The translations under genes were made by a program, and so were the position numbers. A DNA stretch of 64,000 nt from a phage, in sequence record PX880101.1. One strand, written 5' to 3'. Every line of letters begins with the position of its first letter. The stretch's first letter is position 1. Below the pieces are notes generated by a model, which saw nothing but the letters and a program-made list of their open reading frames with translations, was not told the DNA's origin and ran no database searches. Below are positions 1 to 9,520 of the stretch, one piece after another.

Positions 1-872
1 CAGAGGAAGCAATTAACTCCTTGTATGCAAACCAGTTAGGGTTTGATGTTAAAGAGTTTGTTGAAGATCCTAGCCAGTTTTTAACTGATCAAGAACACGC
101 AGAGATTCACCAATCATGGGCAAAAGCTGGAAAAATCAAAGTGTTCAAACATTTCGGATCTATTCCGGTGGACGAGTTGATTACCAAGCTTAAGCAAATG
201 GTTTGCCTGTACCATTGCCGTTATATTGTGCTGGATCACCTGTCCATGGTAATTTCAGGGCTTAATGTTAAGGATGAGCGAAAAGAACTGGACATGGCTA
301 TGACTCAGCTGGCTGCGTTTTGTAAGCAGTTTAACGTGTTTATCTTGGTGATCGCTCACCTCAAACGTACAGAGATTGTGCCTCCTAAGGACAAGGATGG
401 TAACCCGTTACCTTTCTGGTATCCTGTGCGAAAAGAGAATTTGCGAGGATCGGCGGGGCTTGAACAGTTGAGTTGGGTAGTCATAGGTGTCGAGGCCGAA
501 GAAATGGTGGATCGTTCTCGTGGACGTGTCCGTCTGGTAGGTCTTAAAAACCGTCCAGCAAAAACTCTAGGTATTGCTGACACTTTGGTTATGGACCCGC
601 ACACAGGTAAGTTCCATGATGCCAGTAATTGGTACTGGGACAAAGAAATGCAAATGTTTACAGACGGAGAAGGTGGGGAGGTTGTTTGGAGACCTCAGGC
701 TATGTTTGAGGATCAGGAGCATGCAGTTGTAGAAACACCTATGGGCAAGGTTGTGGCTGATAAGGTTGTAACTCCTACTGTTAAGCCTGTTGACACGCAG
801 GAAGACCTCCAGTACGATGATCCATCCTCTGACCAGGTCCCTGGTTTTGAGGATGATGAAACGCCTTTTTAA
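1..872 (+). CDS. Replicative DNA helicase, C-terminal RecA-like domain (T7 gp4/DnaB-like); 5' end lies outside the window
   Basis: Frame is open back to the window edge; LRGSAGLEQLS and IAHLKR segments resemble the DnaB/gp4 helicase C-terminal motifs. Confidence 0.65.
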   Translation, partial: EEAINSLYANQLGFDVKEFVEDPSQFLTDQEHAEIHQSWAKAGKIKVFKHFGSIPVDELITKLKQMVCLYHCRYIVLDHLSMVISGLNVKDERKELDMAMTQLAAFCKQFNVFILVIAHLKRTEIVPPKDKDGNPLPFWYPVRKENLRGSAGLEQLSWVVIGVEAEEMVDRSRGRVRLVGLKNRPAKTLGIADTLVMDPHTGKFHDASNWYWDKEMQMFTDGEGGEVVWRPQAMFEDQEHAVVETPMGKVVADKVVTPTVKPVDTQEDLQYDDPSSDQVPGFEDDETPF

Positions 873-930: not shown

Positions 931-3354
931 ATGAGCATGTGGTCGTTCGATTTTGAGTCATCCGGTTTGCTGGAAGACCCAGATCTTTATTATCACTGCG
1001 GTCTGTTTAAAGAGCTGAATAAGAACCGTTTTATGCTGTTCCTTCCTCTAAATGACCGCACACACTACTCCGAGGAGGATATAGAAAAGGCTAAGAACTT
1101 CATTCTGGCAAAGAAAACTCTTTATAAAGATTTTGAAGTTCGCATAGCAGATTTTTCGGAGTTGGAAGGTTGGCTTACAGGCAATTCCGACTGGTCACCA
1201 ACAGCTTTGAACTGCCATAACTGCTACAGTTATGACTTTATGCTGATGGAGAGATTGTCCGGTATTCATTTTGATATGTTCCGTGATCCTAAATGCATGG
1301 GGACTATCAACGACCACCAGGTTAACCTGTTTGATACGTTGGCGATGAGCCGAATTTTGTGGCCTGATCGCCCTCTACCAAAAGGTTGTCCGGACGCTGT
1401 ATTCAACCCGGTTACTAAGAAAATGCAGCCTGTTGGTCCTCACGGCCTTATGGCATGGGGCTACGCCCTTGGTAACCAGAAAGTTCAAATTGATGACTGG
1501 CGCGATCTTCCGTTGTGGAAGTATGTGGATCGTGTATTCGAGGACGTTATCATCCAGGAGCTGCTCTGGAAAGAGCTGGTAGCGGAATCAAAAGGTGTAT
1601 TCTACGGCAAATCTGACATGCAGAACTTTATGTACGATCCTGCCAAAGAGAAGCCGAAAGGGTTCAAGAAGATCACCTGGAAGAACGCATTACGCCGGGG
1701 TATGCTGCAGCACTTCCTGATGGAGCTGCAGGCCCGTCAGGGTGTATATTTCGACATAGATGGAGCTATTGCTTTACGTGACCGTTGTGATGCGTGGATG
1801 AAAGAGATCGCTGATCGTGTTGAACCTCAACTTCCTTTAAAAGAGTTGTCAATGTCTCAGCGGCCCAAGTTCCCTGAAAAGCCGTTTAACCAAGATGGGA
1901 CAATCTCCAATAATGGTTGGAAATGGTTAAAAGATAAGCTTGGCTATCCTGTGGACATGAGCGCTTTAGAGTTCAAAGCCCCACCTAAGCGAGCATTTAC
2001 CTCCACAGGGGATGTCAGTAAGATGGGGATAAAATGGTGTGAAGAGATGGGCTGTAAAGACCCTGATAAGATGGCTGATTTCTTGAGGGGCTATATTAAG
2101 GGCACCTCCACACCACAACCTTTACCTAAAGAGCTAATGGATCAGGCAATAAGTGATCTACAGCAGAAGCGAATGCCTGACTGCAAGATACCTATGAAAA
2201 TCAGCAATCAGGACGACATTAAGCGATACCTGATCAGTGCTGGTTGGCTTCCGACAATGTGGAGAACTAAGGATGTAACTAAAGACAGCAAGAAGAAAGC
2301 TCTACCTGATGCAGATGTTGATGCACGAGTATATGCATATATGGACGAGCTTTTAGAGTCAGAGTATTGTGACCTGATTATCAACTTCTGGAACAAAACT
2401 GATGCTAAGTTCCAGACAACCGTGCACAAGTTCCGAAGCTTTCCTAACTCCGAAAGGATTAAAAAGGAAGTATTCGGGAAAATACGTAGAAAAGCCAGGG
2501 CACTTATTACTTCTCCGCAACTGAAAGATACGTTTGGACACCTATGTCCGAATCTTGAAAAATTGAACGGAGAGATGGCTAAAGATATCGTCTTGTGGTT
2601 ATCCTTGCGAAACCGCAGATCGGTCCTTGATCCAATCAAGGAGGATAAGGTTGATACTGGTCTTCTTAATCACCCACGTTTGAAGATTGACCATAAGCTT
2701 CCTGCTAAAAGTTCTGGATTAACAAACACTTCCCGACAGAAACACAGTATTTGTGCGAACATGCCTAAACCATCTCCTAAAGTGGTTATGGGTAAAGAGA
2801 TGCGTAGTCTGTGGGGTGTTCCTCCAGGATACTTTGAGATTGGTATTGACGGGTCCAACTTAGAGCAGCTTATCGGGGCTTGGGGTGCCTTTGAGTTCGA
2901 CAACGGCTTGTATTATGATGTTGTAAGTAACGGGGACGCACACCAAAACAATGCTGAGGCATATACAAAAGTAGCAGGTAGAGAGGTGTCTCGTAACGAC
3001 GGTAAACCTATCACGTATGGGGTTATGTATGGGGCACAAAAAGATAAAGTTGCAGATATGCTGGACATCTCTCCAGAGTTGGGACAAAGGGTAATCGATG
3101 CACTCTGGGATGCCAACCCAGGTCTTAAGGGGCGCAAAGAGGATCTGGAGAAATTCTGGGAAGCAACAGGTAAGAAGTTTATCTACTCTTTTGATGGTCA
3201 TGCTATCTGGACCCGATCTAAACACTCTTTACTTAATGCATACCAACAAAATGGCGGTGCATCGTTGTGTGACTTAGTTGGAATACTCATGCACCACCAG
3301 ATGGTGAAGCGTGGGTGGTACGATGAAGGTGTTCGTCGTATTATTTATTACCAT
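931..3354 (+). CDS. DNA polymerase family A, exon 1 (3'-5' exonuclease plus polymerase motifs A and B)
   Basis: FDFESSG (Exo I), IDGSNLEQL (motif A), KPITYGVMYGA (motif B), NAYQQNGGASLCDL (helix before motif C); the unspliced frame ends IIYYH-K-stop at 3355-3360, before motif C is complete. Confidence 0.85.
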
Positions 3355-3630
3355 AAATAACATTGTGGCTTCATAGAGTAATCTATGTCGAATAACCTCT
3401 TTAACTGCGGGAAGCCTAAACCTTATGGCAAGGTAATCCGCAACGAAGCGCTCAAAAGAGCGAACGCTCAGAGGCCATTCCGAAAGGAAGTAGACCAGCA
3501 AGTGCGGTCGAAATGGGAGGATTCCTGTGGTTGCTTATCATAGGAATATGAGATGGTCCGATCCTACGTGAAAACGTATGGCTATGCACGTAAAGGTGCG
3601 GGGTAGCTTAACGACCTACCTGAACTATTG
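3355..3630 (+). other. Candidate group I self-splicing intron without ORF, inside the DNA polymerase gene
   Basis: Follows exon base U (3354) and ends in G (3630); GTGG at 3365-3368 can pair with exon end CCAU; GNRA-capped hairpins at 3372-3387 and 3478-3489; R-like UCAGAGGCCAU (3468-3478) and S-like AGAUGGUCC (3551-3559). Confidence 0.55.
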
Positions 3631-3984
3631 GATGAGTACCAACTTCAAGTCCCTGACACACCGAAGTATAAGACTGTGTACACCTTCGACACAATCGAAG
3701 AACTGGAAGCATTTAAGGCAGAGCAGGAGGCCAAACTTCATGTGTTCGACGGTCATAAGTACAAAAAGGCACGCAAGGATGAGGACGGAAACGAAGTGGT
3801 TGACAGAGACGGAAACACGGTGTACGATCCTATCCTGAATGATGACGGAAAGCTTGAACTTATCTGGAGCCCTGTGGGTGAAATGGTGGTGCATTGCTTC
3901 TGGCAAGCTTCTAAAATGATGGGCGTCCCGTTCCAGATCACAGGTGAATACTTGTGTGGTCGTAATTGGGGTGATTGTCACTAA
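3631..3984 (+). CDS. DNA polymerase family A, exon 2 (motif C Asp-Glu through conserved C-terminus)
   Basis: No ATG (only in-frame TTG at 3628); frame starts DEYQLQV, completing YH|DE motif C, and ends GRNWGDCH, like the T7 gp5 and Klenow C-termini. Confidence 0.7.
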   Translation, partial: DEYQLQVPDTPKYKTVYTFDTIEELEAFKAEQEAKLHVFDGHKYKKARKDEDGNEVVDRDGNTVYDPILNDDGKLELIWSPVGEMVVHCFWQASKMMGVPFQITGEYLCGRNWGDCH

Positions 3985-6809: not shown

Positions 6810-7178
6810 ATGGAACAAATGAACGATCAAGAGTCGGTTGCGATGAACGAGCAAGAACAACCTCAAGAATTTTTCTTAGGGTTAAGTAAAGATCAAGTGT
6901 CTCTTTTGCTAGTGCTTTCTTCTTTCATGGGAAGACTTCAGGAGCTCACACAACAACCGGAGGCTGAACAATTATTTCAGGCTCTGCGTGAAGAAGAAAA
7001 ATATCGTCGTTTGGACTATGCCTTAGGTTGGGTAGCTCAACAACGAGATATGTTGATGGCCCTCTCTGGGACCACAAGTTTTGCAATGGGCCTGTTGGCT
7101 CAAGTTCAGGACAAATTAATTCAAGCAGGGTTTGCACACACGGCAAACACTAACGAAGAACAAGGAGACAAAGAATGA
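6810..7178 (+). CDS. hypothetical protein
   Basis: GGAGA SD; coupled to the next gene by ATGA overlap. Confidence 0.55.
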   Translation: MEQMNDQESVAMNEQEQPQEFFLGLSKDQVSLLLVLSSFMGRLQELTQQPEAEQLFQALREEEKYRRLDYALGWVAQQRDMLMALSGTTSFAMGLLAQVQDKLIQAGFAHTANTNEEQGDKE

Positions 7179-8446
7179 GCGTTATTCAACAATTCGCTAA
7201 CCCGATGAATCCGCGTGAAACTGTTTTACTGGCTCACGGCATGATTAAACGCGTCAGCATCAAGCCTATCAAAGGTGCTGATCCTACAACAGGTATTAAA
7301 ACCACTGTGTGGCAAGGTAAGAAAATTGAGTCCAGCCACACCATCTCTTTACTGATTTCTGAACTGGATTCCTCTGATAACCTACTTCAAGGTGGTGAAG
7401 AAGTTTGGATCAGTATGGGCGATAAGCTGCTTAAACCGGGTCATCAAGACTCTGTCTCTGTTAAAATTGATGACAAGTGGGAAACCGTAACGCCAGGATG
7501 GATCGTAAATATCCCTTTGAAGGCAAACGAGCATAACGGTAAGACCTACTACAAAGGCTCACTGGCTAAGATGGTTAAGCTGGGTGCAGGAGAGACTCCA
7601 GCAGCGACTCAGCAGCAAAAACCGCAACAAGGTGCACAATCACAAGGCCAGAAGCAGAAACCTCAGCAGAATGCCAATCAGGACGTTTTACGCATCTATG
7701 GTGATGTGACTCAGATTGTTGGCAACGTGGTTACTGTTAATGACCACAAGATTGGCGAAGGTGCTATGGTTGTAACTGATGAGCAGCTTAAAGACCTGGT
7801 GGTAGGTGGTCGTGTTGCAGCCATTGTTGACAAAGACACCGGAAACATTATCAGTGGTTTCAAAGCCTATCCTCCTAAGGCAGAGAACGGTACTCAAGGC
7901 TCTGGTGGCAAGCGTAAATCCTCTTACGACCCTATCGGTGTGGAAACGGGGCATAGCATCAATGCGTTGCAAATCATCCTGGATCGCGGGTTTAAGGTAG
8001 ACGACCCACTAGGAGTGGCTAAAACACTACACGTAGTCACTATTGAGCTTAAGAAAGAGTATGCTCAAGCCACCAACCGAACTGAAGATGAAGTAGGTGC
8101 CAGTGTCGGTAATGCGGTGTTGAACGCTTGTCGCCGTATTGACAAGAAAACGAAAGTTGATGATTTTGCAGCGGCAATTACTGCAGAAGCAAAAGATGTC
8201 TTGACTAATCTGGCTGAGCCGTTGTACGATTGGATCAAGAACGGTGCTGGGTCAACTGACCATCAAGAACCTCAGGCTGCCAAACAGGAAGCAGCTCCAC
8301 AGCAAAACACTGTAGACGCTCCTCCTGTAAATGATGGGGAAGATGACCCGATGGATCAGAATCCAGCACAGTATGACTTCTGTGATGACATACCTTTCGC
8401 TCCGGTAGGTCTGCAATATGGTAAAAGTAGAATCTACGCATTGTAA
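7175..8446 (+). CDS. Putative ssDNA-binding protein (Q-rich linker, acidic tail with DDIPF motif)
   Basis: Low-complexity [20 protein letters not shown] linker and acidic segment DFCDDIPF resembling the E. coli SSB tail, but 15 residues follow the motif; position after helicase and polymerase. Confidence 0.4.
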
Positions 8447-9041
8447 GAGGTGCATCAAGTGCGGAGAGGTGAAAAACCTCTCCGAGTTCTACAAACATCC
8501 AAAGATGGCTGACGGTCATCTTAATAAGTGCAAAGAGTGCTGTAAGAAGGCCAGCAGAGAGGCTGACCAGTTTTCCCACGACTCTTCAGAAAAAGGTGTA
8601 ATACGCGTGCTGTACAAGGCTCAAAAGTGCAACAGCAAGCAAAGAGGTCACCCTCCTCCGACTTACACCAAAAAAGAGTTTAAGGAGTGGCTATACCTGA
8701 ACGGTTACAAAGAGTTGTATGATCAGTGGGTAGCCAGCGGATACGACAAAAGGAAAAAGCCTTCTTGTGACAGGATAGATGATTTCAAAGGGTACTCTTT
8801 TGATAATATCCGTTTAACAACCTGGGGAGAAAATAAAGACAAGCAGACGGAGGATATTCTGTTGCATAGAAGCACCAGCGGTAGACGGTGTAAAAATGTA
8901 AGGAGGCTGGACATGAATGGCAACGTTCTTAAAGAATGGGTATCCCACAATTCTTGTAGAAGAGAAACCGGAATATGTGTTGATTACTACATTCATGAAA
9001 AAATTCCAGCTCCCGATGGATACCTCTATGAATACTTTTAG
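8418..9041 (+). CDS. HNH homing endonuclease (N-terminal zinc finger plus HNH_3-like CDRID...[10 protein letters not shown] motif), free-standing
   Basis: CKRCIKCGE...HLNKCKEC zinc-binding segment and [24 protein letters not shown]; overlaps the 3' end of the SSB-like gene by 29 nt. Confidence 0.6.
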
Positions 9042-9056
9042 CACCTAACTGACATA

Positions 9057-9086
9057 GCCCTGCCCGAAAGGGTGGGGCATTTTTGT
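9057..9086 (+). terminator. Rho-independent terminator (9-bp stem, GAAA loop, T-run)
   Basis: GCCCTGCCC-GAAA-GGGTGGGGC followed by ATTTTTGT. Confidence 0.55.
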
Positions 9087-9103
9087 ATAAGGAGATCTGA
9101 AAA

Positions 9104-9520
9104 ATGACATTAGAAGATATCATTGTTAAACCTGAGAACTATGACCAATACAACCTGTCAACTCAATCTGTAGACCTTGGATGCGCCACGGTCAGTGCGT
9201 GGATGGTTAACGGAAAAGAGCTGGATAAATGCTTAGAAGCTCACATGTCTATTAACAAGTTTCTGGATGAAAATACTCACTGGCTTGAGGGTGCAGGTGT
9301 ATATGCTTCATGGTTGGAGAGTATGGGATTCGACTACCAATCTGAAGAGGGGTGGTGGAGCTATTTAGCTATCTGCCCAGAGACGCTGCAATGCTTCATG
9401 AAATATTCTGAAGATTTGGAGTACCGGGCGGTGGTTGATAGTGCTATTGCCCGTTATAGCCGTAAACCTTTTTCCCACGACATTAAAACTGTGGAAGAAT
9501 TTGTTGAAGTTTTCTGTTGA
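9104..9520 (+). CDS. hypothetical protein
   Basis: AAGGAGA SD. Confidence 0.55.
   Translation: MTLEDIIVKPENYDQYNLSTQSVDLGCATVSAWMVNGKELDKCLEAHMSINKFLDENTHWLEGAGVYASWLESMGFDYQSEEGWWSYLAICPETLQCFMKYSEDLEYRAVVDSAIARYSRKPFSHDIKTVEEFVEVFC

Follow-up and report, generated by a model that had tools for sequence, protein, structure and literature searches.

What can an SSB-type tail bind when its end is buried under further residues, or is such a tail trimmed? The C-terminal DDDIPF tip of SSB normally needs a free C-terminus to recruit its partners. The tip is the hub by which SSB brings in over a dozen proteins of genome maintenance. A free terminal Phe is considered essential, and the partner pockets in SSB complexes contact the alpha-carboxylate of this Phe. 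In the phage DNA analysed here (64,000 nt, record PX880101.1; hereafter the window), an SSB-like gene encodes a tip of this type followed by 15 further residues, which we call the cap, and an endonuclease gene starts inside the cap codons. SSB-type tails and free-standing homing endonucleases are known kinds of element, and the cap is the interesting, testable part of the locus. We found no paper on the cap in the open-access literature. A first-pass annotation had proposed that insertion of the endonuclease may have remodelled the 3' end of the ssb gene. In our analysis, the locus probably consists of an SSB-like gene and an endonuclease cassette carrying a conserved cap, the cap being an older portable module that moved along with the endonuclease.

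We re-read the open reading frames of the locus. The results showed a 423-aa ORF with a Gln-rich linker, an internal YDFCDDIPF, 15 residues after it and an endonuclease ATG in the last codons, exactly as the first-pass annotation had described. The SSB-like gene lies at 7175..8446 on the plus strand (423 aa by ORF translation), and its start codon overlaps the stop of the upstream 122-aa gene (ATGA; 6810..7178, plus strand; phrog_7310, function unknown). The SSB-Ct-like tip YDFCDDIPF comprises residues 400-408 (nt 8372..8398, plus strand) and is internal in this allele. The cap and stop follow directly at 8399..8446 on the plus strand (codons 8399-8443, stop 8444-8446). The 207-aa endonuclease ORF (8418..9041, plus strand) is in the +1 frame relative to the SSB-like gene. 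Its ATG lies 26 nt upstream of the SSB-like stop, inside the Tyr-Gly codons of the cap (TAT GGT), and the SSB-like stop TAA is built from the endonuclease Cys-Lys codons (TGT AAG). The endonuclease frame is closed upstream by a TAG at 8406-8408, so ATG 8418 is the sole start that includes the first CxxC. With this start inside the cap codons, expression of the two genes is probably translationally coupled. An intrinsic terminator composed of a hairpin and a T-run (9057..9088, plus strand; strong hairpin 9057-9078) is found after the endonuclease here; in phages lacking the endonuclease it comes straight after the stop of the SSB-like gene. The endonuclease gene sits between coding end and terminator and is therefore co-transcribed with the SSB-like gene. 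The conserved downstream gene phrog_8967 (9104..9520, plus strand) delimits the polymorphic site on the right.

The 423-aa protein was modelled with AlphaFold2, using 38 homologs as input. In the model, the N-terminal residues 1-140 form a beta-barrel, which a disordered Gln-rich linker (141-168) connects to a small barrel (170-235). A four-helix bundle (250-358) follows, and the acidic tail (361-423) is disordered, with pLDDT <40 and no predicted structure. An OB-fold DNA-binding domain was recognised in the protein, but the Pfam search gave no PF00436 match (E<=1) and the PDB profile search with the rV5-type family aligned to E. coli SSB at the C-terminal tip alone. The protein belongs to phrog_4477 (function unknown), whose profile stops exactly at residue 408. 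The arrangement of bacterial-type SSBs, a linker plus an acidic DDDIPF at the extreme C-terminus, is present in the endonuclease-less alleles and is lost here, where the tip is internal with 15 residues after it. Like the E. coli SSB-Ct (...MDFDDDIPF-COOH), the window tip is acidic-hydrophobic and comes after a disordered Gln/Pro-rich linker; the E. coli tip has a free Phe carboxylate, whereas the window tip has 15 residues after it and a body that is not a Pfam SSB. The 423-aa protein is thus an rV5-type putative single-strand-DNA-binding-like replication protein with an OB fold.

The endonuclease belongs to a large phage family (503 matches). The 8418..9041 ORF (plus strand) has a leader of 7-8 residues (MVKVESTH) at its N-terminus, a Zn ribbon with C12, C15, C38 and C41 (nt 8451-8540, plus strand; CxxC...CxxC conserved across 35 homologs) and a PacI-like beta-beta-alpha-Me core with D118, R119, Y126 and N139 (~nt 8754-8855, plus strand). 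These four core residues are family invariants, and the core motif reads KPSxDRxDDxKGYSxDNIxLxTWxEN. The C-terminal domain is NUMOD-like in the homologues, and some homologs have an I-HmuI NUMOD-like domain. A structural zinc site and a beta-beta-alpha-metal fold closest to PacI and I-HmuI were both recognised in the 207-aa protein. The canonical H...N...H catalytic residues were not complete, as the first His is absent (35 homologs), and the Pfam search gave no HNH match (E<=1); a PDB sequence search gave a weak PacI match. PacI is an HNH-family enzyme that uses Tyr instead of His as general base (PMC4081073), and the endonuclease family here similarly has invariant Y126 and R119 and no first His. 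The earlier term "HNH homing endonuclease" therefore holds for the HNH superfamily and for the homing-type polymorphism described below, but the protein is of the PacI-like kind. We assign it as a putative free-standing homing-type gene of the PacI-like HNH superfamily. No second copy of the endonuclease or of its Zn ribbon was found in the window.

We surveyed the alleles of this site in ~117 matching related genome records; the window region matches rV5-like E. coli phages, which belong to the genus Vequintavirus, at 97-99% identity. In type A (~65 of ~117 records) there is no endonuclease, the orthologue has 408 aa and ends in ...YAFDDDIPF, and ~20 nt separate the SSB-like stop from the terminator. 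Type B, with cap and endonuclease as in this window, was found in 31 of ~117 records including rV5. Type C (18-20 of ~117 records, e.g. WalterGehring/Bas51 and IMG/VR locus L006) has the endonuclease without the extension: the SSB-like gene ends in ...YEFDDSIPF, and a 192-aa endonuclease begins 8 nt later, whose Zn ribbon departs from that of type B in its first half. The only difference between types B and C is a junction patch of ~160-190 nt (~8378..8540, plus strand); elsewhere they show ~97% identity. A fourth state (L061) lacks the endonuclease and stops at the type B tip YDFCDDIPF. The endonuclease is thus present in about 51/117 records, under half of these near-identical Vequintaviruses, and the empty site is exact.

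Compared with endonuclease-less genomes, the differing block spans 8374..9056 on the plus strand and takes in the variant tip codons, the cap and the endonuclease gene together with ~16 nt beyond its stop. When the window is aligned with MaxTheCat, a type A phage, the left flank has a single mismatch over 475 nt, followed by 7 within the 25 nt adjoining the insert. On the right, 4 mismatches fall within 16 nt of the endonuclease stop, and the next ~140 nt have none. Presence/absence polymorphism at one site together with clustered flanking substitutions identifies a free-standing homing-type endonuclease gene. Judged from the sequence, the flank pattern is the usual signature of such a gene with a co-conversion or immunity tract, and we read the block 8374..9056 as an imported cassette with such a tract.

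These results support part of the proposal that insertion remodelled the ssb 3' end: close relatives without the endonuclease stop at DDDIPF (408 aa), the extension in Vequintavirus is found only alongside the endonuclease, and substitutions are sharply clustered at both insert flanks. However, type C (L006, WalterGehring) carries an endonuclease at the same site without the extension, which excludes the idea that the endonuclease always brings the cap. In addition, the 15 residues are a conserved peptide that also follows the tips of many endonuclease-free SSBs and helicases, so they are no accidental read-through. Equal extension of endonuclease-less relatives was found among distant relatives only (e.g. 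Kashira), and some of these keep endonuclease remnants.

Among 69 SSB-like homologs, 29, down to ~25% identity, have DDDIPF followed by AP[IV]GLQY and 7-10 residues, with FSPVGLQY and FAYAGLQY as variant cap openings. The cap consensus is DDD[IVT]PF-AP[IV]GLQY-x(2-4)-h-[YHNWML]-[ACSV]-[LIMF]-COOH. Two classes can be distinguished by the tail after GLQY, one of 7 residues (e.g. PALLNCM) and one of 8-9 residues, to which the window belongs. A degenerate DNA scan for IPFAP[IV]GLQY found 45 viral contigs, in which the cap sits on canonical PF00436 SSBs (E down to 1e-71 vs E. coli SSB), on the rV5-type scaffold and on at least three further unannotated OB-like scaffolds. The extension is far beyond chance, because the motif recurs in these 45 viral contigs and in many other loci. 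A profile search with 46-aa tails returned short fragment proteins only, and serves for variants rather than as a census. Cultured phages also carry the cap: the Vibrio phages Valp1 (ending in ...DFDDDIPFAPIGLQYPAIVHCM) and 1.106.O have it, and the SSBs of the T1-like phages ESh4 and morffagbaw end in ...DFDDDIPFASVGLQYGKHRIYAL. For four distant capped homologs (Serratia phage Kashira and three metagenomic contigs), no complete endonuclease gene was found downstream (0/4), but Kashira and L070 have short remnants.

In bacteria, IPFAP[IV]GLQY-type matches were found only 8 times in 185,579 species-representative genomes, indicating that the cap belongs to mobile elements. A prophage SSB of E. 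coli E2348/69 bears the cap variant APVTLPFPRHAIHAI. When the last 54 codons of this ssb allele (166 nt) were used as query, with a match defined as >=80% coverage, 169/5426 complete E. coli genomes (~3%) matched.

The primase/helicase genes have comparable tails. In the window, the 3' part of the primase/helicase gene (1..872, plus strand, continuing beyond the window start; frame-3 translation of 1-1200) ends in ...GFEDDETPF (~nt 855-872), a free acidic PF-COOH tail that resembles an SSB tip. Its orthologues in Vequintavirinae and ICP1 can be aligned as far as this tip. The KE22 primase/helicase ends in ...DMDNDTPF and has neither cap nor endonuclease, the Seunavirus NINP13076 protein ends in ...DMDDDTPFAPIGLQYANHAIYVL with an overlapping endonuclease, and in Mydovirus KpS8 the cap is kept with no endonuclease, the downstream sequence rejoining that of KE22. 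A similar pairing is found in T7, where gp2.5 (SSB) and gp4 (helicase-primase) have acidic Phe-ending tails, as the rV5-type SSB-like protein and primase/helicase both have acidic ...PF tails. The T7 gp2.5 and gp4 tails both address the same partner. The likeness to T7 lies in the arrangement of the tails, and we know of no conserved cap after the terminal Phe of the T7 tails.

The wobble positions of the conserved cap residues use all synonymous codons, while the amino acids are fixed. Every change that the type B phages show within APVGLQY is synonymous, and the changes GGT to GGC and AGT to AGC in the overlap are silent in the cap and non-silent in the endonuclease leader. With synonymous sites saturated and amino acids fixed, the cap peptide itself is under selection. 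An overlapping ORF or DNA signal behind the conservation of APIGLQY is excluded by the TAG at 8406-8408, which closes the +1 frame, and by the saturated wobble positions. Motif recurrence and synonymous-site variation likewise exclude that inserted DNA was read through at random. The cap therefore appears, from these sequence comparisons, to be an older, portable C-terminal module that is selected at the protein level and is carried by replisome proteins of phages, both primase/helicases and SSBs with several folds. Within Vequintavirus it may be nearly neutral, since capped and uncapped alleles coexist in near-identical genomes.

In the boldest reading, which we hold to be less likely than not, the cap peptide is an undescribed portable short linear motif on the PF-COOH tails of phage SSBs and replicative helicases across many phage families. 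The motif would be partly spread by homing endonucleases and would actively reprogramme the tail, either by turning its partner specificity from host SSB-interacting proteins or by serving as a mask or degron whose removal is regulated. If true, this would overturn the working assumption that an SSB-type tip functions only when it is the literal C-terminus. For the function of the cap, our preferred reading, though also less likely than not, is that it alters partner binding of the tail by burying the Phe alpha-carboxylate and providing a new hydrophobic C-terminus. The cap may hide the tip from host SSB-interacting proteins, recruit another partner, or both. Comparison by eye with beta-clamp motifs, the PIP-box, the ClpX C-motif and PDZ ligands gave no convincing likeness. 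Because the tip is strictly conserved upstream of the cap, simple masking is hard to reconcile with the data, and proteolytic removal fits equally well.

In a rival explanation, the cap would be a C-terminal propeptide, conserved as a protease site and trimmed by a host or phage protease between the tip Phe and AP, so that DDIPF-COOH is freed and the alleles are functionally equivalent. Strict conservation of the tip in every capped lineage is consistent with this, as are the capped and uncapped alleles standing side by side in near-identical phages and the fixed length and nonpolar C-terminus of the cap, which resemble C-terminal recognition signals. However, a protease acting here is neither known nor predicted, and the cytoplasmic proteases that recognise C-terminal degrons work processively, so that the tip should be lost as well. 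We consider this explanation improbable.

In ESh4, morffagbaw, L049 and ABPH49, the endonuclease ATG lies in Tyr-Gly/Ala codons 26 nt before the stop, as in the window; these endonucleases have the same Zn ribbon but a canonical HNH catalytic domain. A Kashira-like group shows a decay series, with a full endonuclease in ABPH49, a 31-aa remnant in L070 and ~11 codons in Kashira. A Zn ribbon was found within 330 nt in 5/45 capped loci vs 2/120 plain FDDDIPF-ending loci (OR 7.4, p=0.017), the plain sample being the 120 among the matches listed and both samples being pattern-defined. By class, it was present in 4/11 loci with 8-9-residue caps and 1/34 with 7-residue caps. The 8-9-residue tail class is thus enriched beside Zn-ribbon endonucleases, and the association is modest (p=0.017). 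Of the seven-residue caps, 33/34 lack any endonuclease or remnant, and their Tyr codon contains no ATG. A cap that is always with an endonuclease is excluded by the distant homologs, by KpS8 and by most cap-bearing genes, which have none.

This association raises an explanation in which the cap is the functionless 5' arm of a selfish cassette (leader, start and ribosome-binding context) and also a disrupted homing site giving immunity, hence persisting after endonuclease loss. The endonuclease start codon and leader do lie in the cap, endonuclease remnants adjoin caps, in cap-only alleles such as KpS8 the ancestral downstream sequence resumes exactly, and the enrichment points the same way. 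Yet APIGLQY, with no overlapping ORF, is amino-acid-invariant with saturated synonymous sites, the seven-residue caps almost all lack both an endonuclease trace and the embedded ATG, and immunity needs no specific peptide. In the overlap, moreover, it is the endonuclease leader that is the non-conserved partner. Such a scar would fit the endonuclease-linked class, but not the conservation of the APIGLQY peptide in endonuclease-free lineages, and as a general account we regard it as quite improbable.

The leader also bears on which of the two elements is older. Among the 120 family members listed (of 503), most start with MKKCFKCG and lack the MVKVESTH leader, and in loci L030 and L034 the same embedded ATG and leader serve an unrelated ORF. 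Because this leader is unusual and the embedded ATG is reused, we infer that the constrained cap came first and that endonucleases later became adapted to a start within it.

The best reading for the window remains that the cap arrived with the endonuclease cassette. The endonuclease would home into tip-encoding 3' ends, a target suggested by its position, by cutting a cap-less or endonuclease-less allele. Repair from a capped donor could then have copied the cap into the Vequintavirus gene, with co-conversion as the entry route; in the window allele the cassette replaces the SSB-like stop codon with 15 cap codons. Zn-ribbon endonucleases probably settle by preference immediately 3' of such tails and take the cap with them on moving, and after endonuclease decay the cap can stay. 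Hitchhiking of this kind accounts for this window and not for the origin of the cap, because most cap-bearing genes have no endonuclease.

An artefact, in which the extension arose in one genome from a missing stop codon or from a frameshift introduced by sequencing or assembly, has a negligible chance of being correct: the unusual look of an internal DDIPF is all that speaks for it, while the type B junction is common to 31 independent deposited phage records including rV5 (95-100% identity), both ORFs are open in 6/6 junction variants read and the motif recurs in unrelated phages, so the error near 8395-8446 that the first-pass annotation proposed to check for is ruled out.

The cassette shares with free-standing phage homing endonucleases (T4 Seg/Mob, I-HmuI) the presence/absence polymorphism, the insertion between genes of an operon, the flanking polymorphism and the modular nuclease and DNA-binding domains. 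In contrast to T4 Seg/Mob, I-HmuI and PacI, the start codon here lies within the last codons of the neighbour, and the cassette changes the protein C-terminus of the host gene. It provides a concrete case in which a homing-type endonuclease alters how an essential host protein ends, and it may carry a functional motif from one gene to an unrelated one. In phage HK620, the SSB tail NDYPPF is needed to stimulate the cognate annealase Sak4 (PMC5928155). Capped SSBs are often found in a similar recombination module (Rad52-like/Erf - SSB - Abc2), although the HK620 tail ends at its PPF tip without a cap. The BASEL phages offer natural isogenic sets in MaxTheCat (no endonuclease), WalterGehring (endonuclease only) and EmilHeitz, DrSchubert and MaxBurger (endonuclease and cap).

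In rV5-like genomes, the SSB-like gene is almost always annotated as "hypothetical", and the upstream 122-aa gene is labelled putative SSB in one record (JLBYU08). The endonuclease is already annotated in these genomes as "endonuclease VII" or "putative homing endonuclease".

The cap, the conserved peptide that follows the SSB-type tip, was also found in front of a different downstream gene. In two IMG/VR contigs (L030 and L034), a cap reading GKSRI[HY]ALS lies at the 3' end of a canonical ssb, and its DNA shares about 85% identity with that of the window's cap. The results showed that the same embedded ATG as in the window opens an unrelated 97-aa ORF there (MEKAESTHYLNAPP...), so the cap seems to be a 5' adaptor common to different downstream genes.

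In the chromosome of E. coli E2348/69, a prophage SSB gene (725526-726032) likewise encodes a protein whose C-terminal end is a variant of the cap, and it lies in a Rad52-like - HNH - SSB - Abc2 module. A 166-nt query spanning the last 54 codons of this ssb was matched at 80% coverage or more in 169 of the 5426 complete E. coli genomes, and in all 169 the gene was annotated as plain "ssb".

A capped tail was also observed on an SU10-type portal protein. The ORF in question (2012-3932 on the reverse-complemented IMG/VR contig IMGVR_UViG_3300020046_003745) encodes the complete portal protein (Pfam E-value 2e-178), followed by a Gln-rich linker and then ...EFDDKIPFAPIGLQYRSILNCM before the stop codon; the motif lies at 3881-3910 in the contig's own plus-strand coordinates. 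Its tail is the same as that of the OB-fold proteins in two other loci, L007 and L014. Either the fusion is genuine or CAG repeats may have led to a chimeric assembly.

Immediately 5' of the SSB-like gene, a 122-aa gene on the plus strand (6810-7178, phrog_7310) ends in an ATGA overlap with its start. The 122-aa protein had no match in Pfam; in one record, JLBYU08, its annotation is "putative SSB".

The 3' part of a phage primase/helicase gene (1-872, plus strand), cut off on its 5' side by the window start, translates to a C-terminal end of DQVPGFEDDETPF before the stop codon, an acidic PF-COOH tail that resembles an SSB tip. The alignment with orthologues from Vequintavirinae and from Vibrio phage ICP1 extends as far as this same tip, indicating that the helicase and the SSB-like protein share a tail type. 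By analogy, this arrangement would resemble that of T7, where helicase and SSB also have a common tail type.

Endonuclease start codons were inconsistent among deposits. In rV5 and the window the gene begins at one and the same ATG; the start annotated in MiataMamis lies 75 nt upstream of it, with an in-frame stop codon between the two. SYGMH1 and ABPH49 are annotated from an internal Met (MADG/MSDG), so that the Zn ribbon loses its first CxxC. Sixteen records (MG0656xx) are titled 'Campylobacter phage' with C. jejuni as listed host; they showed 97-98% identity to E. coli rV5-like phages across this region, and their Campylobacter labelling looks doubtful.
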